Part shown: one piece after another, positions 1,071-61,661 of the stretch
Layout of the letters: each line of letters starts with the position of its first letter
Numbering within the stretch: the first letter of the stretch is position 1
Source of the DNA: Gammaproteobacteria bacterium
GTDB taxonomy: Bacteria > Pseudomonadota > Gammaproteobacteria > Ga0077536
DNA length: 64,000 bases
Assembly: GCA_009692365.1 (NCBI GenBank)
Contig: SHZJ01000002.1
Coordinates: forward strand, 52,692-116,691
Reading direction: 5' to 3'
Translations under genes and position numbers: made by a program
The notes under the pieces: generated by a model
What the model was told of the DNA's origin: nothing
Databases searched by the model: none
The model's input: the letters and a program-made list of their open reading frames with translations, nothing else

Positions 1071-3017
1071 ATGGATATTCACAGCTTTGGCCGGACTCCC
1101 CGCGAAGCCGACCGGGTTTACCGCAAACAAGTCGAGCGCGCCTGGCTGGCCCTGGTGGAACGCGGCGGCGTCATCGACCCCGGCGTGCGCGATTTTATCC
1201 GCGACTCCTGGACCCGCTGCCTGTCGCTGGGCGTGGAGCCCGTGGCCCAGCGGCCCACGCTGCAAGGCGCGGGCGCGGCTTTAGAGCGGTTGTGCGACAG
1301 CAACCGGGAGCTGCTGCAGGCGTTTCAAAATACTTGGCGGGTGCTGGGTGATATTTTGGCCGGCACCCAAAGTTGTCTGGTGGTCGCGGACGCCACCGGC
1401 ACGCTGCTGGAGGTGTGCGGCAGCCCGGTAGTGGTCGACCGCGGCGCCCGCGATTGCCTAAGCCCCGGCTACCACTGGAGCGAGTTGAGCGGCGGCACCA
1501 ACGCCATCGGCACGGCGATCGCGCTCAACAGCCCGGCGGAAGTGCACAGCGCCGAGCACCTACTCGCGGTGGCGAAAATCTGGAGCTGCTCGGCCGCGCC
1601 GGTGCGCGACCACGTGGATGGCCACTTGGTCGGGGTGGTGGACGTCACCAGTTTTGGCGACAGTCATCAACAACACTGCCTCGCCTTGGCCGTGACTGCA
1701 GCCCATCAGATTGAAGCAACCCTGCGCTCTCGCGAGCTCGCACGCGCCGTGCAGCTACTCCATTGGTATCAATCACAGGCCTCGCGCTGGCCCCATCAGG
1801 CCGCGGTGCTGCTCGACCACCAGGGGCGGGTGCTGAGTGCCAACGCGCTCGCCCGCACGCTTTTCGGGGATGGTCGCGACCACACCCCGCTGGAACGCGG
1901 GCGCCCCTTCATGGTGGTGCGCGGTGAGCCGACGCTGGCCCACTGCACCGCCGCTCTCCCGCGCGGCATGCGGGCCGTCGCGTTGGAAGCCCATGCGGGG
2001 CGCGAGTGCGCGTGGGACGGTGGCGTGTTGGTCGTGGAACCGCTGCGTGGGCGCCGCCGCGCGGCCGCGCAGCCCGTCACGCCCGCGCCAGACCCGTTCC
2101 CGGGGATAGTGGGCAATCACCCCGCGCTGGTGGAAATCAAGCGCCAAGCGGCGTGCGTGGCGCAGGCGCTCGCACCGGTCTTGCTGCTGGGGGAAGCGGG
2201 CGTCGGCAAAACCCTGTGGGCGCACCACATTCATCAGGCATCCCCGGCCGCCAACGGGCCTTGGGTCGTGGTCAACTGCGCGCAGCTGCCGCACGCGCTA
2301 GCCGCCGGCGAACTGTTCGGTGATGAAGCAGGGCCGGGCGGGCGGGCGGGTAAATTTGAGCAAGCTAACGGCGGCACACTATTGCTCGCGCAGATTGACG
2401 AATTGCCTGTGGAAGTTCAGGCGGGGGTGCTCAGGTTGGTGCAAGAAAACGTCGTGGTGCGCGTGGGTGGCCAGCGGGAGCGCCCTCTCCGGGTCCGCCT
2501 AATCGCCACCAGCCGTCACGACTTAGACCACGCCGTGGCGGCGGGGCGCTGCCGGCAGGATTTGCTAGAGCGCCTCCGAGTGCTCAGCCTGCGACTCCCC
2601 GCCCTGCGCGACCACCCGGAGGATTTACCCGCGCTGGTCCGCCATCTGCTGACGCAAATCGAGGTGACCTACGGCTTGGGCACACGCCACGCCGGTCCAG
2701 AGCTCCTCACCGTCTTGGCCGGCGCGCCGTGGCCGGGCAATGCGCGCGAGTTGCGCCGATTACTCGAGCGCCTGTATGTGCTGAGCGAGCACGCCCTGCT
2801 GACGCTGCAGCATCTGCCGGCAGACTTCCCCCGCCAACCGCCGCCCGCGGGCGCCCAACGCCCGGCCCGTGCGCCCCAGCTCATCAGCACTTTGGAGCGC
2901 AAAGCCATCGAGGCTGCGCTCGCGAGTCACGGTCGCAACCTCTCGGACGTCGCCCGCCGGCTGGGGATCTCGCGCAGCACGCTGTACCGGAAAATGCAGC
3001 GCTACGACGCGGGCTAG
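1071..3017 (+). CDS. AcoR-type transcriptional regulator of the bacterial enhancer-binding protein family: N-terminal GAF-like sensory domain, central AAA+ domain, C-terminal Fis-type helix-turn-helix.
   Basis: N-terminal VIDPGVRDFIRDSWTRCLSLGVEP is the typical AcoR-family motif. Walker A GEAGVGKT is present. The C-terminal LSDVARRLGISRSTLYRKMQRY is a Fis-type HTH. The expected GAFTGA loop reads GDEAGPGGRAG and the Walker B position reads LLLAQIDEL. Confidence 0.8.
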   Translation: MDIHSFGRTPREADRVYRKQVERAWLALVERGGVIDPGVRDFIRDSWTRCLSLGVEPVAQRPTLQGAGAALERLCDSNRELLQAFQNTWRVLGDILAGTQSCLVVADATGTLLEVCGSPVVVDRGARDCLSPGYHWSELSGGTNAIGTAIALNSPAEVHSAEHLLAVAKIWSCSAAPVRDHVDGHLVGVVDVTSFGDSHQQHCLALAVTAAHQIEATLRSRELARAVQLLHWYQSQASRWPHQAAVLLDHQGRVLSANALARTLFGDGRDHTPLERGRPFMVVRGEPTLAHCTAALPRGMRAVALEAHAGRECAWDGGVLVVEPLRGRRRAAAQPVTPAPDPFPGIVGNHPALVEIKRQAACVAQALAPVLLLGEAGVGKTLWAHHIHQASPAANGPWVVVNCAQLPHALAAGELFGDEAGPGGRAGKFEQANGGTLLLAQIDELPVEVQAGVLRLVQENVVVRVGGQRERPLRVRLIATSRHDLDHAVAAGRCRQDLLERLRVLSLRLPALRDHPEDLPALVRHLLTQIEVTYGLGTRHAGPELLTVLAGAPWPGNARELRRLLERLYVLSEHALLTLQHLPADFPRQPPPAGAQRPARAPQLISTLERKAIEAALASHGRNLSDVARRLGISRSTLYRKMQRYDAG

Positions 3018-3072
3018 CGCGGCGCCGCTGCGTAGGCGCGATGCGCGCGCCGCTGACGACCCAGCCAAAGCC

Positions 3073-4491
3073 TCACCAGCCCCCGCCCAGCGCGCGAATC
3101 AGCGCCACGCTCGCCAGCACTCGCGCGCCGCTAATTTGCTGGGTCTGACGTTCCACCAGCAGCGTGAGTCGCTGGGCTTGGAGAACTTCCAGGTAACTCG
3201 TGGCACCGGCATCGAAGCGCTGCTGCGCAAGCTGCTGGGCGCGCGTGGCCGCGGCTAGCGTATTGGCCACCGTATCGTGCTGCTCCGCCAGCGTGCGCAA
3301 CGCGACCAGCGCGTCTTCCACTTCGCGCACGGCGTTCAATATTTGCTGACGATAGAGCGCCGTTTCTTCTCTTAGCGCGGCTTGCGCGCGCTCCAGATTG
3401 GCGGCGTTGCGGCCGCCGTCAAAGATTGGCTGTACCAGCAGCAAGCCGGCGAGCGGCCCCAAGGCCCAAGTGCGGGCCGACCAGGCAAACAGTTTGCCGA
3501 TGTCGTCCGCCACAAAAGAGGCATCTGCGGTGAGGTCGAGCAGCGGATAAAAAGCCGCTTTGGCGACCCCGATGCGCGCGTTGGCGGCTTCCATCCGCCG
3601 TTCAGCCGCGGCGATATCCGGGCGTCGCTCCAGCAAAGTGGAGGGCAGGCCCGGCGGCACTCGGGGTGGGGTGGCGGCGAGCGGGGCGGGCGTCAGCGCG
3701 AACGCGGCGGGGGCGCGCGCCAGTAAAATTGCCAGCGCGTGTTCGTCCTGTGCCCGCGTGCGCTCCACCCCGATGAGCTCGGTGCGCAGGGCTTGGAGTT
3801 CGGCTACGGCGCGCACCAGGTCGACATCGCTCACTTCCCCGGCGAGCGCCCGGCGGGCGTCCAGTGCGAGGGTGTCGCGGCGCAGGTGCAGGGCGGTGTT
3901 CAGTACCGCGAGTTCGGCATCGGCAAGACGAATGAGAAAATAGGTGCGCGCGACTTCCGCTTGGAGGGCGAGCAGAAAAGATTGGTACAGGGCTTGCTGC
4001 CCACTGAAATCAGCGTCCGCCGCGCGCACGCTGTCGCGCACCCGCCCAAAGAGGTCCACCTCATAGCTCAGCGCCGCGCCGAAAGTGTAGCGGTCGTAAG
4101 GCGCCAAGTCGGGGTCGCCGCGCAAACCCGGGCCCACGTTGGCGGACTTACCGGCGGCGGCCCCGGCGCCAAAATCGACGCGTGGCAGCTGCGCGGCCGC
4201 CGCCGTTTTCACCAGCGTCCGGCTTTGCTCGACGCGGGCGGCGGCGGCGGCCAGGTCGAAGTTCGCGCTAGTGGCATCGCGCAGCAGCGCGCTGAGCACC
4301 GGATCGGCGAAAACCTCCCACCACGCCCCACGCGACAATGCGTCGGCGGGATCGGCGGGCGTCCACTGACCCTCAATGGCGGGGCTGGCTTCTTTCCAGT
4401 TCTCGGGCACGCCGCTCGCCGGGCGTTCCAACGGTGGCGCGAGCGAGCAGGCGCCTAGCGCGAGCACCACCCCACACCAAGCCAGTTTCAT
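3073..4491 (-). CDS. RND efflux outer-membrane factor lipoprotein, NodT/OprM family.
   Basis: Lipoprotein signal MKLAWCGVVLALGACS. The length and the repeated coiled-coil/beta-barrel halves are typical of the outer membrane factor family. Its 4-bp overlap with the upstream RND pump gene (4488..4491) implies co-transcription. Confidence 0.85.
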   Translation of the reverse strand: MKLAWCGVVLALGACSLAPPLERPASGVPENWKEASPAIEGQWTPADPADALSRGAWWEVFADPVLSALLRDATSANFDLAAAAARVEQSRTLVKTAAAAQLPRVDFGAGAAAGKSANVGPGLRGDPDLAPYDRYTFGAALSYEVDLFGRVRDSVRAADADFSGQQALYQSFLLALQAEVARTYFLIRLADAELAVLNTALHLRRDTLALDARRALAGEVSDVDLVRAVAELQALRTELIGVERTRAQDEHALAILLARAPAAFALTPAPLAATPPRVPPGLPSTLLERRPDIAAAERRMEAANARIGVAKAAFYPLLDLTADASFVADDIGKLFAWSARTWALGPLAGLLLVQPIFDGGRNAANLERAQAALREETALYRQQILNAVREVEDALVALRTLAEQHDTVANTLAAATRAQQLAQQRFDAGATSYLEVLQAQRLTLLVERQTQQISGARVLASVALIRALGGGW

Positions 4492-7400
4492 ACACCCGGC
4501 TCCGCCGAGGCCGTGACGCTCGGCGCGCTGGGGCGCCGCGCCAGCAGCACGTAGAACACCGGGGTCAGGAGCAGGCCAAACAGCGTCACCCCCAACATGC
4601 CGGAAAACACTGCAACCCCCATCGCACGGCGCATCTCGGCGCCAGCTCCCGTTGAGAGCACCAGCGGCAAGACGCCCATGATGAAAGAAATAGACGTCAT
4701 CAGGATGGGGCGAAAACGCAGCCGACAGGCCTCGAGCGCGGCCTTTACCGGACCGATGTCGGGCTCGTGAATTTCCCGATCGCGGGCAAATTCTACGATT
4801 AGGATGGCGTTTTTACAGGCCAGCCCCATCAAGACGAACATCGCGATTTGGGTAAAAATATTGCGGTCGCCGCCGGTATAAAGCACCCCGCCGATGGCGA
4901 ACAGCAGGCACAGCGGCACGATTAAAATAATCGCCAGCGGCAAGCGAAAACTCTCGTACAGCGCGGCCAGCACCAACAGCACGAGCAGCACACACAGGGG
5001 ATACACCAGCAGCGCGGTGTCGCCGGTGAGCAATTCTTGGTAGGTCAGCTCGGTCCATTCGTAGGCAATGCCACGCGGCAGAGTCTCGTTGAGGATGTTC
5101 TCCAAGATGGCCCGCGCCTGGCCCGAGCTGACCCCAGGCGCCGGTGCGCCGTTGATGTCGGCCGAGGGAAACGCGTTGTAGCGAATGGCGCGGTCCGGCC
5201 CAAAGGCGTGCAGCACATCGAGTAACGCCCCCAACGGCACCATTTCGCCGCTTTCATTGCGGGTTTTGAGCCGTGCGATATCCTCGAGGCTCGCGCGCTG
5301 GGGGGCGTCGGCCTGCACCACGACCCGGTAAGTTTTGCCGAAACGATTGAAGTCGTTGACGTACAACGACCCCAAATACACCTGCAGCGTGGCGAACAGG
5401 TCGTTGAGGTTGACCCCCATCTGTTTGGCTTTTTCGCGATCGATTGCGGCATTGAGCTGCGGCACATTGATTTGGTAGCTCGAGAACATGCCCACCAACT
5501 GCGGGGTTTGCCAAGCCCGCATGAGCACCGCCTGCAGCGCGTTGTACAGCACCTCGTCGCCCAAGCCGGCCTGGTCCTCCAGCTGCAGCTTAAAGCCGCC
5601 AATGGAGCCCAGCCCATCCACCGGCGGGGGCGTGAAAAACGCGATGAAAGCCCCCTGCACGGCCCCAAACTCTTGGTTGAGCTTGCCCGCAATCGCCCTG
5701 GCCGAGAGCTCGGGCGCACGCCTGGCTTCAAACTCATCGAGATTGAGAAAAAGCAGGGCGGCGTTGGAGGCGTTCACAAAGCCGTTGATCGACAGCCCGG
5801 GGAAACCGACCACGTTCGCCACCCCCGGCGTCTTCAGAGCCAGCGCGGTCATCTGGCGCACGATTTTGTCTGTGCGGTCGAGCGACGCACCGTCAGGCAG
5901 CTGCGCAAAGCCGATGAGGTACTGCTTGTCGGGGCTGGGGATAAAGCCACCGGGCACCAACAAAAAGGCTTGCCAGGTCACCCAGAGCAAGCCGATGTAG
6001 ACGACCACCAGCAGCGCCTTGATCCGCATGAAGCGCGCGATAACCCAAGCGTAGCTGCGGGCACCGAGGTGAAAAAGATAGTCAAAAACGCGAAAAAACC
6101 AGCCGAACAGCTGGTCCATCAATTTGGTGAGCCCGTCTTTTGGCTCATCGTGACCGCGCAACAAGAGCGCCGCCAGCGCGGGCGACAGCGTGAGTGAATT
6201 GATGGCGGAGATCACCGCGGAGATCGCAATGGTCAGTGAGAACTGGCGGTAGAACTGGCCGGTCAAACCGCTGATGAACGCGATCGGCACAAACACCGCG
6301 CACAGCGTGAGCGCGATGGCGATGATGGGCCCGCTGACTTCCTGCATCGCCCGATAGCTGGCCGCCTTGGGCGCCAGACCCAGAGCGATGTTGCGCTCGA
6401 CGTTTTCCACCACGACGATGGCGTCGTCGACCACGATGCCGATCGACAGCACCAGACCAAACAGCGTGAGCGTGTTGATGGAAAAGCCGGCCACCAGCAT
6501 CACGCCAAACGTGCCGATGACGGAGACGGGCACAGCGGCGAGCGGAATGATCGACGCACGCCAAGTCTTCAAGAAAACGATGACCACCAGCGCGACCAGC
6601 AGCACGGCTTCGACCAGGGTGGTAATGACCGCCTTGATGGACTTCTGCACAAAACGCGTGGGGTCGTAAACAATCTTGTATTCGACTGCCTGCGGAAAGT
6701 CTTTTTTGGCTTCCTCCATCGCCGCACGCACCGCGTTGGAAAGCGCGATGGCGTTCGACAACGGCGCCTGAAAGGCCACTAGAGCAACCGCTGGGCTATC
6801 GTCTAACTGACTGCGCAGCGAGTAGTCGCTGGCGGCGAGTTCGATGCGCGCCACATCCCGCAGGCGCAGTACCCCGCCACGGGCAGAGGTTTTGAGAATA
6901 ATCCCACCGAACTCCGCCTCGGTCGTGAGCCGGCCCTGGGTGTTAACGGGCAGCTGAAACTGGATCGCGGTGGGTGCCGGCGAGCCGCCAATCAGACCCG
7001 CGGCCACCTGCTGATTTTGTTCCCGGATGGCGGTGACCACATCGGTCGCGGTGAGTTCGCGGGCGGCAAGTTTTTGCGGGTCGAGCCAAATTCGCATCGC
7101 GTAGTCGCCGGCACCAAAGACCATCACCTCACCCATGCCCTCGATGCGCCGCAGCTTGTCGCGGAGATTCAGCACCGCATAGTTGCGCAGGTACAGTTCA
7201 TCGTAATGGCCGTCGGTGGACAGTAAATGCACCACCATCGTAAGGTTGGGCGACTGCTTTTGGGTGACCACACCAATCTGGCGGACCTCCGGGGGCAGGC
7301 GCGGCAGCGCGCGCTGCACCCGGTTTTGCACCTGGGTCTCGGCGAGGTCGGGATTGGTGCCTATTTTGAAGGTCACCGTGAGATTCAACATCCCATCGGT

Positions 7401-7655
7401 GGTGGCCTGCGAGGACATGTAGAGCATGTCTTCAACGCCGTTGATTTGTTCTTCCAGCGGCGCTGCGACCGTCTCCGCAATAACCTTCGGATTGGCCCCC
7501 GGATAGTTGGCCGTGACGACGATCGATGGTGGCACGACGTCGGGATATTCCGATACCGGCAGCAGCGGGATGGCAATCAGCCCGCCGACGAAAATCGCGA
7601 TCGACAGCACCGCCGCGAAAACGGGCCGGTCAATAAAAGTCCGTGACAGGCTCAT
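4488..7655 (-). CDS. RND multidrug efflux pump, inner-membrane permease of the HAE1/AcrB/MexB family.
   Basis: 1055 aa with 12 transmembrane segments and two large periplasmic loops. AcrB-type motifs such as MSLSRTFIDRPVFA...ANYPGA are present. Confidence 0.9.
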   Translation of the reverse strand: MSLSRTFIDRPVFAAVLSIAIFVGGLIAIPLLPVSEYPDVVPPSIVVTANYPGANPKVIAETVAAPLEEQINGVEDMLYMSSQATTDGMLNLTVTFKIGTNPDLAETQVQNRVQRALPRLPPEVRQIGVVTQKQSPNLTMVVHLLSTDGHYDELYLRNYAVLNLRDKLRRIEGMGEVMVFGAGDYAMRIWLDPQKLAARELTATDVVTAIREQNQQVAAGLIGGSPAPTAIQFQLPVNTQGRLTTEAEFGGIILKTSARGGVLRLRDVARIELAASDYSLRSQLDDSPAVALVAFQAPLSNAIALSNAVRAAMEEAKKDFPQAVEYKIVYDPTRFVQKSIKAVITTLVEAVLLVALVVIVFLKTWRASIIPLAAVPVSVIGTFGVMLVAGFSINTLTLFGLVLSIGIVVDDAIVVVENVERNIALGLAPKAASYRAMQEVSGPIIAIALTLCAVFVPIAFISGLTGQFYRQFSLTIAISAVISAINSLTLSPALAALLLRGHDEPKDGLTKLMDQLFGWFFRVFDYLFHLGARSYAWVIARFMRIKALLVVVYIGLLWVTWQAFLLVPGGFIPSPDKQYLIGFAQLPDGASLDRTDKIVRQMTALALKTPGVANVVGFPGLSINGFVNASNAALLFLNLDEFEARRAPELSARAIAGKLNQEFGAVQGAFIAFFTPPPVDGLGSIGGFKLQLEDQAGLGDEVLYNALQAVLMRAWQTPQLVGMFSSYQINVPQLNAAIDREKAKQMGVNLNDLFATLQVYLGSLYVNDFNRFGKTYRVVVQADAPQRASLEDIARLKTRNESGEMVPLGALLDVLHAFGPDRAIRYNAFPSADINGAPAPGVSSGQARAILENILNETLPRGIAYEWTELTYQELLTGDTALLVYPLCVLLVLLVLAALYESFRLPLAIILIVPLCLLFAIGGVLYTGGDRNIFTQIAMFVLMGLACKNAILIVEFARDREIHEPDIGPVKAALEACRLRFRPILMTSISFIMGVLPLVLSTGAGAEMRRAMGVAVFSGMLGVTLFGLLLTPVFYVLLARRPSAPSVTASAEPGV

Positions 7656-7685
7656 GCTAGCGGGGAAGACACAAAAATGGACAAG

Positions 7686-9308
7686 TCAACGTGCCAATGC
7701 CGCCAGCGACCGCACCGAACGAGGCCAAGGCTGGGTGCTGCCGCGCAGTGCCGCCGGCAAAGCGGTGGCGGCGGTCTGCGCGCTGGCCAGAGTCGGATAG
7801 TGTCCGTAGAGCAGGACGTACCAAATTTGGCCGTCGCGCCGGGTCGCCAGCACGGCAGCCTGGCCGGCGAGCCCGTGACGGGCGAGGAATTTTTCAGCCG
7901 CCGGCCGCGTCGTCACGCCTAAAATCTGGAGCGCCCAGCTAGTGGGCGCCTGCTGGAGCAACCACGCGCTGGAATAGCCCACGACCGGGGACGCCGCCGG
8001 GGCCGCGGGGCTGGCGGCAACCGGGGCGGGGGTGAGCGCCGGGGCCGCGGGGCTGGCGGCAACCGGGGCGGGGGTGAGCGCCGGGGCCGCAGGGCTGACG
8101 GCAACCGGGGCGGGGGTGAGCGCCGGGGCCGCAGGGCTGGCGGCGAGGTCTGGCACCATGCTGACCAGTTCGGGCTTCACGACGGAGCCGGGCCGCACGC
8201 GCTGCAAACCGTTCACGACGATCTTCTCGCCGACGGCCAGCCCGCTCTCGATCACCCGCAGACCCTCGAAGGCGCGGCCAATCTGCACTGCCCGGTACTG
8301 AGCTTTATTAGCCGCATCGACAACCAAGACGTAGCGTTTGGTCTGGTCCGTGCCAATCGCGCCATCAAGGACCATCACCGCGCGCCGCGCGGCGCTGCTG
8401 CTGGCCAGCAGCACCCGGGCGAACAAGCCGGGCGTAAAGCGCCGCTCGGGGTTGGGTAGCTCCGCGCGCAGGCGCACCGTGCCGCTGCCAACGTCGATCT
8501 GGTTGTCGATAAACACCACTTTCGCCACGTGTGGCGCGCCCGTTTCGTTGGCGAGTCCCACGTGGACGTTCAAGCTGGCCGCGCGCCCATTGCGAATATA
8601 TTTAAGGTAGGTGCGCTCGTCGGCCTCAAAACTGACATAAATAGGGTCCAACGCCAGCAGGGTTGAGAGTACCGGGGAGTCCGGCGCATCCCCGCGAACC
8701 AGATTGCCGATGGTCACTTCGTCCTTACCCATACGCCCGGCCACGGGTGCCACGATGCGGGTGTAGGACAAATCGACCCGCGCGAGGGTGACGCGGGCGG
8801 CAGCGACTCGGCTGGCGGCGTCGAGCGTGGCAACCGCGGCGGCGGCGGCGTCGAACTCGCGCCGAGAAGTGGCCCGGTCGGGGAGCATTTTTTGTTGCCT
8901 GGCGAGTTCGATCCGCGCCAGCGCCAACTGCGCGGCAGTCTCGCCGACCGCCGCCTCGGCTTCCGCCAGACGGGCCGCAAAGGGCGCGGGGTCGATCAGA
9001 AACAACGGGTCGCCGGCGGCGACGTCAGCACCCGGGGTAAAATAAATAGCCTTCAGATACCCACCCACCCGAACCCGTAAATCCACCCGCTGCGTGGCTT
9101 CGAAACGACCGGCAAATTCATCCGTTTCGATGATGTCGCGCTCAATCGCGGCCGCCGCGGTGATCGGCGGTGGGCCGGCGGGTGCTGCCCCAGGACCACC
9201 CGCCGACGGGGGTGCCTTGCCGCACGCGGCGAGGATTACGGCCAGCAGCAAGACCACCCAACGGGCGCGTGCTGGCCGGCGCTCCTGCGTCACACGGGTC
9301 ATCATCAT
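7686..9308 (-). CDS. RND efflux membrane fusion protein (periplasmic adaptor) with a C-terminal proline/alanine-rich tandem-repeat linker and a SPOR-like peptidoglycan-binding domain.
   Basis: The adaptor core runs from the lipoyl/beta-barrel region to VVNGLQRVRPGSVVKPELV. It is followed by (SPAAPALTPAPVAA)x3.5. The last ~75 residues (WALQILGV...GQIWYVLLYGHYPTLASAQTAATAL) fit the SPOR fold pattern. Confidence 0.8.
   Translation of the reverse strand: MMMTRVTQERRPARARWVVLLLAVILAACGKAPPSAGGPGAAPAGPPPITAAAAIERDIIETDEFAGRFEATQRVDLRVRVGGYLKAIYFTPGADVAAGDPLFLIDPAPFAARLAEAEAAVGETAAQLALARIELARQQKMLPDRATSRREFDAAAAAVATLDAASRVAAARVTLARVDLSYTRIVAPVAGRMGKDEVTIGNLVRGDAPDSPVLSTLLALDPIYVSFEADERTYLKYIRNGRAASLNVHVGLANETGAPHVAKVVFIDNQIDVGSGTVRLRAELPNPERRFTPGLFARVLLASSSAARRAVMVLDGAIGTDQTKRYVLVVDAANKAQYRAVQIGRAFEGLRVIESGLAVGEKIVVNGLQRVRPGSVVKPELVSMVPDLAASPAAPALTPAPVAVSPAAPALTPAPVAASPAAPALTPAPVAASPAAPAASPVVGYSSAWLLQQAPTSWALQILGVTTRPAAEKFLARHGLAGQAAVLATRRDGQIWYVLLYGHYPTLASAQTAATALPAALRGSTQPWPRSVRSLAALAR
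7996..8145. repeat. Tandem 42-bp repeat of about 3.6 copies, encoding the Pro/Ala-rich linker of the adaptor protein.
   Basis: Units at 7996..8037, 8038..8079 and 8080..8121, plus a partial fourth. Unit sequence is gccggggccgcggggctggcggcaaccggggcgggggtgagc, with single-base variants. Confidence 0.9.
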
Positions 9309-10026
9309 GGGTAGGGGACCTTTGAGTCGGTGGCTTGCTCGTGGCTCTTGTGGCCCGCCGCGACCCGCCCGCCCCGCGCGGCACCCGCGGAGCTTTTGGC
9401 GAGCACGGGCTCATCGCGTGGGAGTATGGGATAGGTTCTGCGATTTAACTAGATTGTCTTACCGACGCCCGCGCCAAATGAACAATTGGACCGCAGACGA
9501 CCCCGTCATGACGGCCAGCGTGCTGAACGAGGGGGAGGATCCTTCGGCGTGCCGCTAGAATTTTTACGGTTTGCGGGTGCGCTGTCGTTGGTGGTGGCGA
9601 GAGGCCATCACCACCCCGGCAGATCGCGCTGGCGCTGGCACCGGGCGGCTACGACGGGGGCGTGCGGGACTATGCGGTGGGTTGTGGCGGGTCAACGCGG
9701 TGGCGGGCGCGAGCGCCGGGGTGGCGCGCTCGAATCGGGATGCCGAAACCCGCGCCGTAGGACTGTGATGAGGTCAGGGCTGGCCCGTCGTGCCGACCGA
9801 TGCCGTGGTCTTTGCGGTCCTCATAGCGACCATGGGCGGGATCCCAAACAGGCCGCACCTGGCGCCCGCCACCACCCCTGGGCGAGCACGTCGCTGAGAG
9901 CTAAACCCCTGCCGCCCGGAAAATTTTTTGCTGGATAGCAGAAAAGAGTTGCACGCAGTACCCTTAATGTGCGCAGCCAACCGGAATGGGCCGCCCGCCA
10001 CAGCGGGTTCAAAAGGAATTTTTCTC

Positions 10027-10629
10027 ATGCGACTCATCTACTTCGATTTTCCGGGTCGCGGTGCGGCGATTCGTGATGCCCTGCGCCTGGGTGGGGTTCC
10101 CTTCGAAGACGTCCGCATCAGCTACCCCGATTTTTGTGCCCGACGGGCAGCGGGCGAATTGCCCTGGGACACCCTGCCGGTCGTGGAATTGCCGGACGGC
10201 ACCCGCCTCGGACAAAGCAATGCCATTCTGCGTTGGGCTGGCGCGCTGGCGGGGCTGACTCCGCCCAACCCTAGCGATGCGTTGCGGGTAGACGACCTCC
10301 TCGACAATATCGAGGACTACGGCGCACGGGTGAGCGTGAGCATTCGGGTGGTGAGCGATGAAGTACGAGCGCAACTGCGCGCGGAGTTGGCGCAACGCTG
10401 GCTGCCCGAATGGTTCGCGCTCTTGGAGCGGCGGCTCGCGGCGGCCGGGCAGGGTTGGCTGGCGGGCGCGGCGTTGAGTGTTGCTGACTTAAAAGCGATG
10501 CACTTAATCGACAAACTCATCAACGGCAGCCTGTCTGGGCTGCAGCCCGATGCCTTAGCCGCTTTCCCAACGCTGAGCGCATGGCACCTGCGAGTTCACG
10601 CACTGCGGGTCCACCGGCACCTCGAGTGA
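10027..10629 (+). CDS. Glutathione S-transferase.
   Basis: MRLIYFDFPGRGAAIRDALRLGGVPFEDVRI...LPVVELPDG..LGQSNAILRWAG matches the GST N-terminal thioredoxin-like domain and alpha-helical C-domain. The ATG at 10027 is chosen over the track's 9928 start. Confidence 0.75.
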   Translation: MRLIYFDFPGRGAAIRDALRLGGVPFEDVRISYPDFCARRAAGELPWDTLPVVELPDGTRLGQSNAILRWAGALAGLTPPNPSDALRVDDLLDNIEDYGARVSVSIRVVSDEVRAQLRAELAQRWLPEWFALLERRLAAAGQGWLAGAALSVADLKAMHLIDKLINGSLSGLQPDALAAFPTLSAWHLRVHALRVHRHLE

Positions 10630-13343
10630 CCGCACGGCCCAGCGCGAAAGTCGATGGAAACTGGCGAACTGGGCCTCGCTACCAGCGTGAGGAACACGCC
10701 GACCGCTTGATCCTCGACGACCTAGAACGTCAGCTTGCGGGTCTCACGCTAATCGACACCCCGGTGTGGTTGTTCGATACCGAACGCTGTCAGTGCCTAT
10801 GGGCGAACCCGGCAGGGCTCGAAGTATGGCAGGCCGAAAACGTCGCCCTGCTGCAGGCCAGAGACGTCGCGGCCACGCAGTCTGAGGCGGTCTATACGCT
10901 CCTGAACGACTACCTGCAGCGGGTAGAGAAGGGCGAGAAAATTGGGGCCTGGGTCACCCTAGACCCCCGCGGTAGGACTCGCCGGTTCTACCAGACCCAC
11001 CATCTCGTCACTCTCTTGGATGGCCGTCGGGCGCTGCTCGTCGAGGCGCAGGCCGAGCCACCCGCGGAGGAACTGCTAGCGCTGGCGTCGAACTACGCGC
11101 TCACCATAGGCTTGTACGAAATGGATGGCGGCTTCGTGAGCGGCAATCCAGCATTTAGCAACATTGCCGCCCACCAATCGCTCGCCACGCTCACCGACAT
11201 CCTGCCGCGCGAGGCCGCATTTGAGCACTGGGCCACCACGATCTCCCAGCAGAGCGCACTGCTGTTTGAAACCGGGTTGCTCACCGCGCGCGGCCACCGC
11301 GTCTTCCGCGGCGAATTACGCCAGGTGCTGACCGCCACGCGCCTACCGCGTGTCCTGCTGACGCTCTATGACCTTACCGAGCAACGCATCGCGGAATCCG
11401 AAGCGGCGCTCCGAGATAATCAGGCACGCACCGAGCGCACACTAGACCACGCGGAGGTGGCGACCTTTGTCTGGGACATCGCGAACCAAAAGGTGTGGGT
11501 AGACCGTCGCTGGTGGGCGATGATGGGCTATGCGCAGGACGAAATCCGGCTCGACGCGGCGGTTTGGTCCTCTCTCGTACACCCGGAGGACCTAACCCGG
11601 CTAGGCCCACAATTCGCGCAGGTGCTCGCCGGCGAAGTTGGGACGTGGGACCACGAGTATCGCGTCAAGACCAAGCAGGACGGCTGGTTATGGATACTCG
11701 ATCGAGGCCTCATCACCCGGCGGGATGAGCAAGGACTGCCGCTGGAAGCGAGCGGTATTCATCTGGATATCCAGCGGCATAAAACCGCCCAACTGGCGCT
11801 CGCGGCGAGCGAATTGCGCCATCGAACAATCCTCTCAGTGTTGCCCGACCTCATCGTCATCCACGATGCCGAGGGCGAGTTTACCGACGTGCACGCCGCC
11901 CGCTTGGCAGACTGGGGGTTCCCAGCGGGTTCCCCACTCGGGTTGGGCATCGCCAAGGTGCTGCCACCAGAACTCGCGGCGACTTTTTTTCAAGTCCAAA
12001 AGAAAGTGCTCTCACGACAGCAGATGCTGCAAGGCGAATACCGCTTGGTCGACCCCCAGTTGGGACCGGTGTTTCGAGAGTTCCGCATGGTGCCCCATGG
12101 GCCACATCACACGCTCACGATGATTCGCGACGTGACCCAGCAAAAGGCGACACAAGCGGCGCATTTGCAGGTCGTCAGGCAGCTTCAGCAAGCCCAGAAA
12201 ATGGATGCCTTGGGGCAATTCACCGGCGGCGTCGCGCACGATTTCAATAACATTCTGGCCAGCATTCTGGGCTACACCTGGCTCGCCTTGCAGCAGACGA
12301 GCCAAGCCCGCGACCCCAAACTGACCCAATACCTCGAGGTCATCACTCGCGCCGGCGAGCGTGGTCGCGATCTCGTGCAGAAATTGCTGGTCTTTAGTCG
12401 TCGCTCCAACGACGGGCCTACCCGCGCGCAAGACCCCCTGCCGTCCTTGAGAGAGAGTTTCCAAATCCTGCGGGCCCTGATCCCCTCCAGCATCTCACTC
12501 GCCTTAGAACTGCCCGACACCTGTCCAGCGCTGGGAATCGACCCCACCGAACTGCATCAGGTGGTGGTTAATATGGCGCTCAATAGTCGCGACGCTTTAC
12601 AGGGGCGCGGCCAAATTGTGATTGCGCTGCGCCCGCTTGCGCAGTATCAGCGCATTTGCGCGAGCTGCCATCGAGCGACCTCAGAGCGCTATGTCGCCCT
12701 CAGCGTCCGGGACGACGGGAGCGGTATTAGTAACGCGCTGCTGGACCGCATTTTTGATCCTTTTTTCACGACCAAACCGATCGGCTCGGGCACCGGCATC
12801 GGACTGGCCGTGGTAGAAGGTGTTATCCATCGCCTCGGTGGGCATATTTTGGTGGACACCGAGGAGGGCCGCGGCACCGAAATGCAGTTGCTGTTGCCGG
12901 CGGCGGCCAGCGGCGCGCCGAGCCTCGCAGAGAACCCGGTGCTAGCTTCAGCTACTTGGAGCGTCACCAACGGCGGTAACCTCATGGTGGTGGATGACGA
13001 AATATTGATTGGCAATTTTTTGCGCGACCTCTTGCAGGATGACGGCTATTCCGTGAGCGTCTTCGACGACAGCCGCGCCGCGTTCGAGGCCTTCGAGGCC
13101 ACCCCCGATGCCTATGTGGCGGTCATCACCGACCTAACGATGCCCCATCTGAGCGGCCTCGAACTCGCCGCGAAGATACACGCCCGCAACTCGCACGTGC
13201 CCATCTTGTTGTGCACCGGCAACGGTGAAAGCTTACGCCCCACGCAGTTGCATGCGACGGGCATCGTGCGGGTTCTGCCGAAACCCATTCCGATCGCCGA
13301 ACTGCGCGCCCTGCTGTCCAGCGTCATCGCCCGCGCGCCTTGA
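10581..13343 (+). CDS. Cytoplasmic hybrid sensor histidine kinase with PAS domains, a HisKA/HATPase core and a C-terminal receiver domain.
   Basis: The H-box reads HDFNNILASILGY. The ATP-binding lid reads GSGTGIGLAVVEGVIH. The receiver reads LMVVDDE...ITDLTMPHLSG...ILLCTG. The start is uncertain: ATG 10581 overlaps the GST gene by 49 bp; an in-frame GTG at 10626 would give a typical 4-bp GTGA overlap. Confidence 0.8.
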   Translation: MAPASSRTAGPPAPRVTARPSAKVDGNWRTGPRYQREEHADRLILDDLERQLAGLTLIDTPVWLFDTERCQCLWANPAGLEVWQAENVALLQARDVAATQSEAVYTLLNDYLQRVEKGEKIGAWVTLDPRGRTRRFYQTHHLVTLLDGRRALLVEAQAEPPAEELLALASNYALTIGLYEMDGGFVSGNPAFSNIAAHQSLATLTDILPREAAFEHWATTISQQSALLFETGLLTARGHRVFRGELRQVLTATRLPRVLLTLYDLTEQRIAESEAALRDNQARTERTLDHAEVATFVWDIANQKVWVDRRWWAMMGYAQDEIRLDAAVWSSLVHPEDLTRLGPQFAQVLAGEVGTWDHEYRVKTKQDGWLWILDRGLITRRDEQGLPLEASGIHLDIQRHKTAQLALAASELRHRTILSVLPDLIVIHDAEGEFTDVHAARLADWGFPAGSPLGLGIAKVLPPELAATFFQVQKKVLSRQQMLQGEYRLVDPQLGPVFREFRMVPHGPHHTLTMIRDVTQQKATQAAHLQVVRQLQQAQKMDALGQFTGGVAHDFNNILASILGYTWLALQQTSQARDPKLTQYLEVITRAGERGRDLVQKLLVFSRRSNDGPTRAQDPLPSLRESFQILRALIPSSISLALELPDTCPALGIDPTELHQVVVNMALNSRDALQGRGQIVIALRPLAQYQRICASCHRATSERYVALSVRDDGSGISNALLDRIFDPFFTTKPIGSGTGIGLAVVEGVIHRLGGHILVDTEEGRGTEMQLLLPAAASGAPSLAENPVLASATWSVTNGGNLMVVDDEILIGNFLRDLLQDDGYSVSVFDDSRAAFEAFEATPDAYVAVITDLTMPHLSGLELAAKIHARNSHVPILLCTGNGESLRPTQLHATGIVRVLPKPIPIAELRALLSSVIARAP

Positions 13344-58316: not shown

Positions 58317-59387
58317 TCAGCCGAAGTTTACCCGCGCCTCTAAGTTGGTGCGCGAATCCGCATTGGTAAGGGCTTCTTCCAGATCGATACGCTCTTCTTT
58401 GTAGAGGTTGAACAGCGCCGCATCAAAGGTCTGCATACCCTTTGCCCCGCTGCCCTCCATCGCTTCCTTGATACTCCCGATCTGCCCTCTGAAAATCAAA
58501 TCCGCGATGTGGGGCGTGTTGAGCATCACCTCGATGGCCGCCACCCGAAAGCCGTCGATGCCCTGCACCAGCCGCTGCGAGATGACCGCCCGCACGTTGA
58601 GCGACAGGTCGAGAAAAAGCTGCTTGTGGAGCGAGTGAGGGAACAGGTTGATCACCCGCTCCATCGCCTGATTGGCATTGTTGGCATGCAGAGTAGACAG
58701 GCACAAATGCCCCGTATTACAGAGTTCCAGCGCGGTTTCCATCGTTTCGCGGTCGCGAATCTCGCCCACCAGAATGACATCCGGCGCTTCGCGCAGCGCC
58801 GCCCGCAAGGCGGCGCGATAGGAGTTGGTATCCACCCCAATCTCGCGCTGGTTCACGATGGAGCGGAGGTTGGGATGCGAGAACTCGATGGGGTCTTCAA
58901 TGGTCAGGATATGTCCTGACATTGTCTGGTTACGCTCGTTTACCATCGCCGCGAGGGTCGTAGATTTTCCCGAACCGGTCGCCCCCACCATGAGAATCAG
59001 CCCGCGCTTGTGCATCACCAGAGATTTTAAAATATCGGGCAGGCAGAGTTCTTCGATGGTTGGAATCTTCGCGGGAATTCGCCGGAGGACCATCGCGATC
59101 TCGCCCCGCTGACGAAACACATTCACGCGGAACCGCGCCGAACTGTCCCCCAGAGAAATTGCGAAGTCGCTCTCCATGGTCGCCTCAAAGCGCTCGAACA
59201 CAGAGGGCGCCATGATGCCGATTGCCGCCGCCCGGATGTGTTCTCCGGTGAGCTGGGTTTTGCCCACCGAGCTCAGCTGACCTTCGATTTTTATTTTCAC
59301 CGGCGCACCGGCCGTGAAAAAAAGATCGGAGCCCAGTTTGTCGCGCAGTAGCTTTAAGTACGGGGTGATATCCATAGTTGTTCTCAC
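58317..59387 (-). CDS. Third PilT/PilU-family type IV pilus retraction ATPase paralog.
   Basis: GATGSGKSTTLAAMVN (Walker A), ILVGEIRD (Walker B) and the AIRNLIRE-like motif variant HIADLIFRG. Confidence 0.8.
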   Translation of the reverse strand: MRTTMDITPYLKLLRDKLGSDLFFTAGAPVKIKIEGQLSSVGKTQLTGEHIRAAAIGIMAPSVFERFEATMESDFAISLGDSSARFRVNVFRQRGEIAMVLRRIPAKIPTIEELCLPDILKSLVMHKRGLILMVGATGSGKSTTLAAMVNERNQTMSGHILTIEDPIEFSHPNLRSIVNQREIGVDTNSYRAALRAALREAPDVILVGEIRDRETMETALELCNTGHLCLSTLHANNANQAMERVINLFPHSLHKQLFLDLSLNVRAVISQRLVQGIDGFRVAAIEVMLNTPHIADLIFRGQIGSIKEAMEGSGAKGMQTFDAALFNLYKEERIDLEEALTNADSRTNLEARVNFG

Positions 59388-59405
59388 TCTTGACGACGCG
59401 CGCCG

Positions 59406-60575
59406 CTAGCGCATCAAAAGGCCTTTGTTTTCCTCGTCGCTCTCCAGACTGAGATGCTCCAAACCACCCAGCCGGTCCTGTGTTTTGGCGTGCTTGCCCT
59501 TTAACTTGATCTGCAGGCGCAGCTCGTTCATTGAGTCGGCGTTGCGCAGCGCATCCTCGTAGGAAATGAGATCCGCCTCATATAGGTCAAACAGCGCCTG
59601 GTCGAAAGTCTTCATACCGAGCTCGTTTGACTTACCCATAATCTCCTTGATGGTGTGAATTTCACCCTTGAGGATGAGGTCGGAAATCAGCGGGGAGTTC
59701 AACATGACCTCGATGGCGGCGGCGCGCCCGCGGCCATCTATTTTTTTTAGCAGCCGCTGCGAGATGATGGCTTTCATGTTGAGCGAGAGATCCATGAACA
59801 ACTGCTGATGCCGTTCTTCGGGAAAGAAATTGATGATGCGGTCCAAGGCCTGATTAGCGCTGTTGGCGTGCAGCGTGGCCATCGCCAAATGGCCGGTTTC
59901 GGCGAACGACAGACCAAATTCCATCGTCGCGCGGTCGCGGATTTCGCCCAGCAAAATGACGTCGGGCGCCTGCCGGAGGGTGTTTTTCAGCGCAATGCCC
60001 CAGTCATCGGTGTCCACCCCTACTTCGCGTTGCGTCACCACGCAGTTGCGATGCGCGTGAATGAACTCAATTGGATCTTCGATGGTGATGATGTGGCCGA
60101 AGCTGTTTTCATTGCGGTGATTGAGCATCGCCGCCAGCGAGGTGGATTTACCCGAACCCGTTCCACCCACCATGATCACCAGCCCGCGCTTGCTCATGCA
60201 AATCTCTTTCAAAACGTCCGGCAGGCCGAGATTTTCCAGCGTCGGCACGGTGGTCTCGATCGCCCGCAACACCATCCCATTGTGGCCCTGTTGAATAAAA
60301 GCGTTCACCCTGAAACGGCCGATCCCGGCGGGGGAAATCGCGAAATTGCACTCTTTAGTGGCCTCGTATTCCTTGAGTTGGCGGTCGTTCATGATGGCGT
60401 AAGAGAGTGCCTTGGTGTTCTCGGCCGTCAACTTGGTCTTGGACACCGGCATCACCTTGCCGTCCATTTTGATGGCGGGGGGGAAGTCAACCGTGATGAA
60501 GAGGTCGGAACCCTTCTTGTCGACCATCAGCTTCAGCAGGTCGCGCATGTACTTGATGGCCTGTTCACGTTCCAT
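59406..60575 (-). CDS. pilU: PilU-like type IV pilus retraction ATPase.
   Basis: GGTGSGKSTSLAAMLN, ILLGEIRD. ~389 aa with the C-terminal extension characteristic of PilU. Adjacent to pilT. Confidence 0.8.
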   Translation of the reverse strand: MEREQAIKYMRDLLKLMVDKKGSDLFITVDFPPAIKMDGKVMPVSKTKLTAENTKALSYAIMNDRQLKEYEATKECNFAISPAGIGRFRVNAFIQQGHNGMVLRAIETTVPTLENLGLPDVLKEICMSKRGLVIMVGGTGSGKSTSLAAMLNHRNENSFGHIITIEDPIEFIHAHRNCVVTQREVGVDTDDWGIALKNTLRQAPDVILLGEIRDRATMEFGLSFAETGHLAMATLHANSANQALDRIINFFPEERHQQLFMDLSLNMKAIISQRLLKKIDGRGRAAAIEVMLNSPLISDLILKGEIHTIKEIMGKSNELGMKTFDQALFDLYEADLISYEDALRNADSMNELRLQIKLKGKHAKTQDRLGGLEHLSLESDEENKGLLMR

Positions 60576-60623
60576 AGGTGCTCTCCTGCTCGATGGTGGG
60601 GCGGTTCTGCGCGCTTGGAGGGT

Positions 60624-61661
60624 TCAAAATAGGTCTTTGTTCTGGGCTTTTATTTTGGCTTCGGTGCGGGAAATCTGGCCTTTCTGGACCATCTGTTGCA
60701 GACATTGGTCGAGGGTCTGCATGCCATGCTGTTGCCCGGTTTGGATGGCCGAGTACATTTGCGCGATCTTGTTTTCGCGAATGAGATTCCGAATCGCAGG
60801 CGTCCCCAGCATGATTTCATGGGCGGCGATCCGCCCCCCGCCGTTGCGCTTGAGCAGATTTTGCGAAATCACCGCCCGTAGCGACTCCGACAGCATCGCC
60901 CTGACCATGTCTTTTTCGTCGGCCGGGAAAACATCAACGATGCGATCGATGGTTTTGGCGGCGGAGCTGGTATGCAGCGTGCCAAAGACCAGATGCCCCG
61001 TCTCGGCGGCCGTAAGCGCCAGGCGGATGGTCTCTAGATCACGCATTTCGCCCACGAGTATGGTGTCTGGATCTTCGCGCAGGGCCGAGCGCAAGGCCTC
61101 ATTGAAACCGAGCGTATCACGGTGCACCTCGCGTTGGTTGATCAGGCATTTCTTGCTTTGATGGACGAATTCGATGGGGTCCTCGATGGTCAGGATATGG
61201 CCGTATTCGGTCTCATTTTTATGGTTAACCATGGCCGCCAGGGTGGTCGATTTGCCGGATCCCGTGGGGCCGGTGACCAGCACTACGCCACGCGGAAAAT
61301 CCGAAATGTCCTTGAAAATCGCGGGCGCTTTGAGGTCTTCCAACGACAGGATTTTGGACGGGATCGTGCGAAATACCGCACCCGAACCGCGATTGTGATT
61401 AAAGGCGTTGACCCGGAACCGCGCCAGACCGGGGATTTCGAAAGAGAAATCGCACTCGAGAAACTCCTCGTAATCCTTGCGCTGCTTGTCGTTCATGATG
61501 TCGTAGACCAGATCATGAACGTCCTTGTGCGGCATGGGCGGCACATTGATGCGTCGGATATCGCCGTCCACCCGAATCATCGGCGGCAGGCCGGCCGACA
61601 AGTGCAGGTCAGAAGCGCCGTTCTTGACGCTGAAAGCCAAGAGTTCGCCGATATCCATCAA
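60624..61661 (-). CDS. pilT: Twitching motility ATPase PilT.
   Basis: Near-colinear match to canonical PilT: MDIGELLAFSVKNGASDLHLSAGLPPMIRVDGD...GPTGSGKSTTLAAM...ILVGEMRDLETIRLALTAAETGHLVFGTLHT...AIRNLIRE. Confidence 0.92.
   Translation of the reverse strand: MMDIGELLAFSVKNGASDLHLSAGLPPMIRVDGDIRRINVPPMPHKDVHDLVYDIMNDKQRKDYEEFLECDFSFEIPGLARFRVNAFNHNRGSGAVFRTIPSKILSLEDLKAPAIFKDISDFPRGVVLVTGPTGSGKSTTLAAMVNHKNETEYGHILTIEDPIEFVHQSKKCLINQREVHRDTLGFNEALRSALREDPDTILVGEMRDLETIRLALTAAETGHLVFGTLHTSSAAKTIDRIVDVFPADEKDMVRAMLSESLRAVISQNLLKRNGGGRIAAHEIMLGTPAIRNLIRENKIAQMYSAIQTGQQHGMQTLDQCLQQMVQKGQISRTEAKIKAQNKDLF

Follow-up and report, generated by a model that had tools for sequence, protein, structure and literature searches.

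An RND efflux adaptor fused to a DamX-type SPOR domain through a variable, repeat-containing Pro/Ala tether in uncultured aquatic Gammaproteobacteria

Why should the periplasmic adaptor of a tripartite efflux pump end in a domain of the kind found in cell division proteins, and what would such a domain do there? The question is raised by a gene in a stretch of 64,000 nucleotides (the window) of contig SHZJ01000002.1, which belongs to the metagenome-assembled genome (MAG) GCA_009692365.1 of a gammaproteobacterium. The gene encodes a lipoprotein adaptor belonging to the resistance-nodulation-division (RND) type in which the adaptor domains are followed by a linker containing a tandem repeat and then by a SPOR domain, as had been proposed in an initial annotation made from the sequence. 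A protein identical to the window adaptor is on deposit as MSQ66754.1, where the annotation reads only 'efflux RND transporter periplasmic adaptor subunit'. The gene and its parts are as follows.

7686..9308, minus strand: adaptor-linker-SPOR fusion gene, 540 amino acids (aa) plus stop, ATG start; lipoprotein RND periplasmic adaptor
9222..9308, minus strand: signal peptide and lipobox L-A-A-C, aa 1-29 (sequence ...LLAVILAACGKA), with Cys29 as predicted lipidation site
8163..9221, minus strand: adaptor core, aa 30-382, with membrane-proximal, beta-barrel and lipoyl domains and an alpha-hairpin (AlphaFold2 (AF2) model, Foldseek)
7974..8162, minus strand: disordered Pro/Ala-rich linker, aa 383-445 (predicted local distance difference test score (pLDDT) of about 30, composition)
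7995..8144, minus strand: 42-bp tandem repeat, 3.6 copies (Tandem Repeats Finder: 97% matches, no indels, score 279), 14-aa unit SPAAPALTPAPVAA
7689..7973, minus strand: DamX-type SPOR domain, aa 446-540, Pfam core aa 454-525 (Pfam, profile, AF2, Foldseek)

The identity of the C-terminal domain was established by profile searches and structure prediction. The Pfam SPOR model (PF05036, gathering cut-off 21) matched aa 454-525 with 38.9 bits (E=1.1e-9) when the whole protein was searched, and with 42.5 bits when the C-terminal 106 aa were scanned alone. A profile built from 11 SPOR domains of the clade of fused adaptors found one convincing match among solved proteins, the SPOR domain of Escherichia coli DamX (2LFV, E=3e-14), over nearly its full length. 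The AF2 model of the domain (pLDDT 80.7) showed a predicted ribonucleoprotein-like fold, in which two helices flank an antiparallel beta-sheet, with a beta-alpha-beta-beta-alpha-beta core (E23-30, H33-42, E49-56, E59-69, H72-80 and E97-99, with E for strand and H for helix), to which an N-terminal helix and a C-terminal strand/helix are added in a DamX-like manner. The top five Foldseek matches of this model in the PDB were all SPOR domains, namely DamX (E=3.3e-6, TM 0.65), CwlC, DedD and, twice, RlpA. Membership of the DamX protein family itself (NF008153) was rejected, with 31.1 bits against a cut-off of 256 and only aa 392-535 aligned.

The residues of DamX that have been implicated in glycan binding or septal localisation are Q351, S354, W364, R380, W385, W416 and K418 (PMC6895207). 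In the HMMER alignment they correspond, in this order, to Q461, G464, F474, R491, W496, W528 and R530 of the window protein. Four of these, Q461, W496, W528 and R530, do not vary within the clade, and at least 90% of its members retain F474 and R491. The domain thus combines the hidden Markov model (HMM) match and the predicted fold of a SPOR domain with the conserved Gln of strand beta1 and the basic and aromatic contact residues of the exposed sheet face. Between the window and the locus of its nearest species-level relative (L001), the ratio of nonsynonymous to synonymous substitution rates (dN/dS) came to 0.21 over the SPOR domain, as against 0.086 over the adaptor core; judged by these ratios, the SPOR domain is under purifying selection, and its constraint is looser than that of the core. 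Binding of the window domain to denuded glycans, and its localisation to the septum, would be in keeping with this conservation.

The adaptor part is that of a regular pump component. The initial annotation had taken the protein for the membrane fusion protein of an operon encoding an outer membrane factor (OMF), an RND permease and an adaptor, and this was borne out by the family model TIGR01730 (RND_mfp), which matched aa 50-379 with 237.9 bits against a cut-off of 94.9, by Pfam HlyD_D23 (41.8 bits against 30) and by the two genes that follow.

4488..7655, minus strand: RND permease, 1055 aa (NF000282 RND_permease_1, 1390.6 bits against 1250)
3073..4491, minus strand: OMF, NodT-type, 472 aa (TIGR01845 outer_NodT, 352.1 bits against 210.05)

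All three genes lie on the minus strand in the order adaptor, RND permease and OMF, with the adaptor gene first. The RND permease starts 30 nucleotides past the stop codon of the adaptor, and the OMF gene overlaps the stop of the RND permease by 4 nucleotides. Residues L26, A28 and C29 of the lipobox are invariant across 20 homologues, and lipidation at Cys29, hence the membrane anchor, is predicted from the sequence. In the AF2 model the alpha-hairpin consists of H108-141 and H149-181 (34 and 33 residues), and Foldseek paired the adaptor model with chains of AcrA, TMexC and MexA in alignments of about 340-384 columns (E=1e-25 to 1e-21). The OMF-docking motif of adaptors, the RLS motif, is defined as RxxxLxxxxxxS (PMC3391258). 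A motif search found R137-x3-M141-x6-S148 at the hairpin tip, which is an RLS-type motif with Met replacing Leu, and its residues are invariant in the alignment, SPOR-less relatives included. The protein therefore has the family profile, the predicted anchor, the four-domain fold with its docking motif and the operon context of an RND adaptor. The best-scoring named relatives are MexE and OqxA; orthology to either was rejected, since the scores (318.1 bits for MexE, NF045904, and 256 bits for OqxA, NF000272) fall far short of the equivalog cut-offs of 714 and 835. Because the core, the hairpin tip and the operon partners are strongly conserved, pump function would appear to be intact.

The adaptor core ends with ...RVRPGSVVKPELV (V382), and the extension beyond it measures 158 aa, close enough to the approximately 140 aa initially given; the whole protein is longer by about 150 aa than the SPOR-less homologues, which have about 390 aa. 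The first part of this extension is the linker, whose 63 residues comprise 23 Ala, 16 Pro, 7 Val and 6 Ser (Pro/Ala 39/63) and whose pLDDT in the AF2 model is about 30 over aa 386-443. Most of it is covered by the translated repeat, which reads SPAAPALTPAPVA followed by Val or Ala three times and then a partial SPAAPA. The repeat had been described as 3.5 copies at 7996..8145; it proved to be real, with the coordinates shifted by 1 nucleotide.

We then compared the linkers of the fused adaptors. Measured from the conserved GLQRVRPG motif to the start of the SPOR segment, linker length across the clade ranges from 41 to 135 aa (69 aa in the window by the same measure), and the linker sequences cannot be aligned, whereas the 97-aa SPOR segment is conserved. 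The copy-number variation that had been predicted for the repeat was found within clusters of proteins sharing 90% identity. The cluster of the window holds proteins of 540, 540 and 512 aa, with about 3.6 versus 1.6 repeat units, and a sister cluster holds proteins of 503, 531, 545, 559, 573, 587, 601 and 615 aa, in which a related motif of 14 aa occurs about 1 to 9 times; within both clusters all length differences are divisible by 14 aa. Lengths of 540, 556 and 564 aa occur in a third cluster (P0013, P0137 and P0138), where the unit that varies in number is an unrelated one of 8 aa, PAAEPAPP. In the DNA, L001 carries 7.2 copies of the 42-bp unit and L005, from a different lineage of the same fusion, 5.9 copies of a 24-bp unit that encodes PAAEPAPP (4676..4817). 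Since the 24-bp repeat is unrelated to the 42-bp unit, the comparison of these sequences indicates that tandem repeats arose in the tether at least twice independently. Arrays of 150-380 bp reach or exceed the limit of what can be resolved from short reads by an assembler, and the copy numbers, those of the shortest arrays above all, may therefore be collapsed. The 3.6 copies of the window recur in MSQ66754.1 and in a separate 226-kb ENA assembly.

A repeat of this kind also raises the suspicion that the 3' region is a separate open reading frame joined by misassembly or frameshift, or else a decaying domain without function. Assembly from short reads has difficulty with tandem repeats, and contig edges do hold a few gene fragments, 55 aa long, that cover the SPOR end. 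The survey of orthologous adaptors gave a clear answer. The fusion was found in 17 clusters at 90% identity (P0001-P0017; 54-100% identical, 509-603 aa), drawn from ENA, JGI, NCBI and Logan assemblies, and all 17 have the adaptor domains together with a precomputed PF05036 match; the homologues from P0018 on are about 390 aa long and have no SPOR domain. Five loci from MAGs that represent GTDB species (L001-L005), all freshwater or aquatic, encode the fusion in frame. The RND gene follows it in all five, with a permease 81-96% identical to that of the window, and the OMF gene follows in L001 and L003-L005, where the contigs are long enough. The population of the window was assembled a second time in the 226-kb ENA contig, whose adaptor (P0001) differs by one residue and whose layout is identical; an exact look-up gave a record for P0001 and none for the window protein itself. 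A further match of the genome scan, L007, was a spurious reverse-frame match and was discarded.

Since the same in-frame fusion recurs in independent assemblies from the four sources and in the five MAG species representatives, misassembly and frameshift are excluded as its cause. The linkers of L003 and L004 are not repetitive and still join the adaptor to the SPOR domain, the fusion has been kept through divergence to about 54-60% identity, and the purifying selection on the SPOR domain and the invariance of its functional residues speak against a relic. An artefact or relic has, in our judgement, a negligible probability. Within the reach of our searches, the fusion appears to be confined to one small clade of uncultured aquatic Gammaproteobacteria. 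Two of the lake MAGs, those of L001 (CAMAXW010000118.1) and L004 (CAMCQE010000026.1), with RND permeases 82-94% identical to that of the window, are titled 'MAG: Klebsiella pneumoniae'; the label looks wrong, as both sit among MAGs named 'Gammaproteobacteria bacterium'.

The origin of the fusion was approached with separate trees for its two parts. In a neighbour-joining tree of the adaptor core only, the 17 SPOR-bearing adaptors formed one clade with no SPOR-less member within it, and the sister group consisted of 23 SPOR-less adaptors. This monophyly argues for a single fusion event, as far as the core sequences can tell. In a tree of SPOR domains only, those of the fusion formed one clade beside the single-SPOR AAA-ATPase proteins. 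An exhaustive search of 1.84 billion representatives with the SPOR-profile HMM gave 7,387 matches, of which the best 150 were inspected for partner domains: one was an adaptor (P0010), 79 were AAA-ATPase+SPOR proteins, and the others carried Sel1/TPR, BamD-like, SH3 and further modules. No independent SPOR fusion in another adaptor family was found among these best 150 of 7,387 matches. A word-indexed homologue search with the SPOR alignment returned 8 short fragments only. The highest-scoring relatives of this SPOR type (P0147-P0158) contain 2-7 tandem SPOR domains together with Sel1/TPR or BamD-like (YfiO) modules.

An example of the AAA-ATPase+SPOR proteins is encoded at 8561..10294 of locus L006; its 577 aa comprise AAA_22 and, behind some 190 aa of Pro/Ala linker, a SPOR domain 49% identical to that of the window. 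The gene lies between aroB and gltB, a DamX-like housekeeping position. Also present in this MAG (GCA_035325705.1) is the SPOR-less sister operon (L008), an orthologous adaptor-RND-OMF operon with a LysR regulator upstream and, as in the window, a sigma-54 activator downstream. From these comparisons the donor was likely an AAA-ATPase/DamX-like protein, and in the simplest history the linker and SPOR end of a DamX-like gene would have been duplicated onto the 3' end of the adaptor gene.

Such a donor could have passed on its function along with its domain. The linker and SPOR domain would then keep a DamX-like role in division, through competition for denuded glycans or modulation of peptidoglycan synthases, for example, with the adaptor serving mainly as a membrane anchor, and in a variant of this explanation the fusion might compensate for a lost or altered housekeeping DamX-like gene. 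The grouping of the SPOR domain with AAA-ATPase+SPOR (DamX/PA5037-like) proteins such as that of L006 fits this possibility, as does the stimulation of PBP1A/1B by DamX and DedD (PMC7642682). However, the acquisition was limited to the linker and the SPOR domain and included neither the cytoplasmic AAA part nor the transmembrane part of the donor type, and the strong conservation of the adaptor core, hairpin tip and operon partners is that of a pump component. We consider a division role of this kind improbable.

If the protein is a working adaptor, the SPOR domain has to be placed within the geometry of the pump. Tripartite RND pumps have a 3:6:3 stoichiometry. The C-terminus of the adaptor belongs to the membrane-proximal domain and is close to the inner membrane, the adaptor/OMF junction is roughly 100 Å higher, and the peptidoglycan layer is at about the level of the junction between adaptor hairpin and OMF. 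The 63-residue tether has a contour of about 195-225 Å (3.1-3.6 Å per residue), so that it would be long enough for the SPOR domain to reach the peptidoglycan.

In the reading that we favour and hold to be fairly probable, the adaptor is captured through its SPOR domain at amidase-processed, mainly septal peptidoglycan, and pumps are assembled and anchored there. The protein would be a normal lipoprotein adaptor that is anchored to the inner membrane and whose C-terminus leaves the membrane-proximal domain as a disordered Pro/Ala tether and ends in the SPOR domain. Given the stoichiometry, up to six tethers per pump would offer SPOR domains to the peptidoglycan. Capture would take place where amidases have processed the peptidoglycan, and would act on free adaptor or on adaptor-RND subcomplexes as these diffuse along the inner membrane. 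The septum and the new poles would then be the sites at which pumps are assembled and anchored in a multivalent manner. The tether encoded by the repeat would set the reach, and its length would change readily. Septal capture is favoured because of what is known of SPOR domains from experiment. All characterised SPOR domains bind denuded glycans, from which amidases have stripped the peptides and which are most abundant at the septum; among the E. coli SPOR domains whose affinity was measured, that of DamX binds such glycans most tightly (dissociation constant about 1-2 uM), and localisation to the division site was seen for all SPOR-swap proteins tested, DamX and FtsN in which the SPOR domain was a heterologous one (10.1101/2022.07.01.498525). 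The fusion suggests that the cell wall at division sites holds these pumps and perhaps also positions them.

The same contacts would be open to a pump with no preference for the septum. The SPOR domain and tether could bolt the adaptor hexamer to the sacculus anywhere, as a uniform strut that stabilises the adaptor-OMF junction or keeps the adaptor ring poised for the docking of the OMF. Anchors of the OmpA type consist of a membrane-anchored module, a hinge and a peptidoglycan-binding domain, and the window protein, with its membrane anchor, Pro/Ala hinge and SPOR domain, resembles them. Six SPOR domains per pump may also provide avidity even for sparse denuded glycans. Furthermore, AcrA is in contact with peptidoglycan in situ (PMC6570770) and purified peptidoglycan stabilises the MexA-OprM complex (PMC8158685), so that a peptidoglycan-binding module on the adaptor would reinforce a contact that already exists, a point that counts for septal capture as well. 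On the other hand, the specificity for denuded glycans and the concentration of the swapped proteins at division sites point away from an even distribution, the window SPOR domain retains the glycan-binding residues of DamX, and an OmpA_C, LysM or PG_binding_1 module would be a more plausible choice for an anchor to the lateral wall. We regard such a strut without septal bias as rather unlikely.

Several points weigh against septal capture as set out above. The carriers are all uncultured MAGs, and the functional steps, from binding to peptidoglycan and enrichment at the septum to a possible effect on efflux, are inferred from sequence. An adaptor locked in an assembled pump would be immobile, so that capture at the septum must precede assembly, and a tether that leaves the membrane-proximal domain must be routed outside the adaptor hexamer. 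The shortest linkers (22-31 aa) may not reach the peptidoglycan, unless they are collapsed short-read repeats. The SPOR domain evolves faster than the adaptor core. Finally, the equivalent of DamX S354 is Gly or Ala; this point is softened by RlpA, which has Ala at this position and in which the contact is made via the backbone (PMC6895207).

We compared the window adaptor with the systems that its parts resemble. It shares with adaptors of the MexE, OqxA, AcrA and MexA type the lipobox signal peptide, the four-domain fold, the RLS-type tip and the operon with RND permease and NodT-type OMF. However, the solved or characterised adaptors are about 330-400 aa long and end soon after the membrane-proximal domain, whereas the window adaptor adds its extension there. 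With E. coli DamX (2LFV) and the AAA-ATPase+SPOR proteins it has in common the SPOR sequence, the predicted fold, the glycan-binding residues and a long Pro/Ala linker ahead of the motif 'YSxxWLxxQ'. It differs from them in the N-terminal module, which is an efflux adaptor instead of a cytoplasmic domain or AAA ATPase with a transmembrane helix. RlpA is likewise a lipoprotein with a C-terminal SPOR domain that sends an unrelated module to denuded glycans (PMC6895207), but it is anchored in the outer membrane and is an enzyme, a lytic transglycosylase, and its SPOR domain is a distant structural match to that of the window (TM about 0.5, 14-17% identity). An analogy within an envelope-spanning machine is offered by the type IVa pilus, where the AMIN domains of PilQ bring the machine to the sites of coming divisions and the new poles are thereby equipped with it in advance (PMC5285504). 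The likeness, a peptidoglycan-binding module in a machine component, is by analogy only, since AMIN does not have the SPOR fold, PilQ is an outer-membrane secretin of another machine, and the case of PilQ is experimental whereas ours comes from sequence. No published description of an adaptor-SPOR fusion was found; the papers found that mention SPOR together with efflux or adaptor terms do so incidentally, and SPOR domains on adaptors are not mentioned in the accessible part of a Chem Rev review of tripartite pumps. Both components are well known, and their combination on an RND adaptor is new as far as the literature consulted goes.

The surroundings of the operon contain genes of regulators. 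A sigma-54-dependent activator (DhaR/MimR-like, 648 aa; 1071..3017, plus strand) is convergent with the OMF gene, and such an activator adjoins the pump operon in L004 and L005 and also the SPOR-less sister operon in L008. On the other side, a gene for a glutathione S-transferase-like protein (9928..10629, plus strand) overlaps that of a hybrid PAS histidine kinase/receiver of 920 aa (10581..13343, plus strand), both divergent from the pump operon; the hybrid histidine kinase flanks the operon in synteny in L003-L005, is duplicated in L004, and may be a regulator of the pump. The interval 2900..9700 yielded no sigma-70-like promoter, and the matches that resemble terminators fall within coding sequence and hence were not used. 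Rfam and tRNA scans of the window gave no matches, and no second SPOR-encoding sequence was found in its 64 kb. Farther away, three tandem genes for PilT/PilU-type T2SSE ATPases of 356, 389 and 345 aa (58317..61661, minus strand) adjoin yggS-like and YggT-family genes; type IV pili, with three paralogues of the retraction-type ATPase, are a probable feature of the organism.

How pumps pass through the peptidoglycan mesh and how they are placed in the cell are both poorly resolved questions. The contacts of AcrA and MexA with peptidoglycan seen so far are weak and non-covalent, and the window adaptor is predicted to carry a dedicated domain of the high-affinity type. As a tentative extension of septal capture, we propose that the pump is pre-installed at the septum: SPOR capture would recruit adaptor-RND subcomplexes where the peptidoglycan is being opened and rebuilt, and the tether would be an evolvable periplasmic ruler. 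If this were true, a duct about 10 nm wide could pass the sacculus with no need for a hydrolase of its own, every new pole would be assured of pumps, and the tandem-repeat Pro/Ala tether would evolve fast, fitting its reach to the geometry of the envelope. The tether provides a clear case of repeat-driven length variation in the periplasm. Known SPOR proteins act in division or morphogenesis (PMC6895207), and the fusion extends the SPOR repertoire past them. As a natural experiment, it would offer a testable handle on how the anchoring and positioning of a pump bear on its assembly, its inheritance and resistance.

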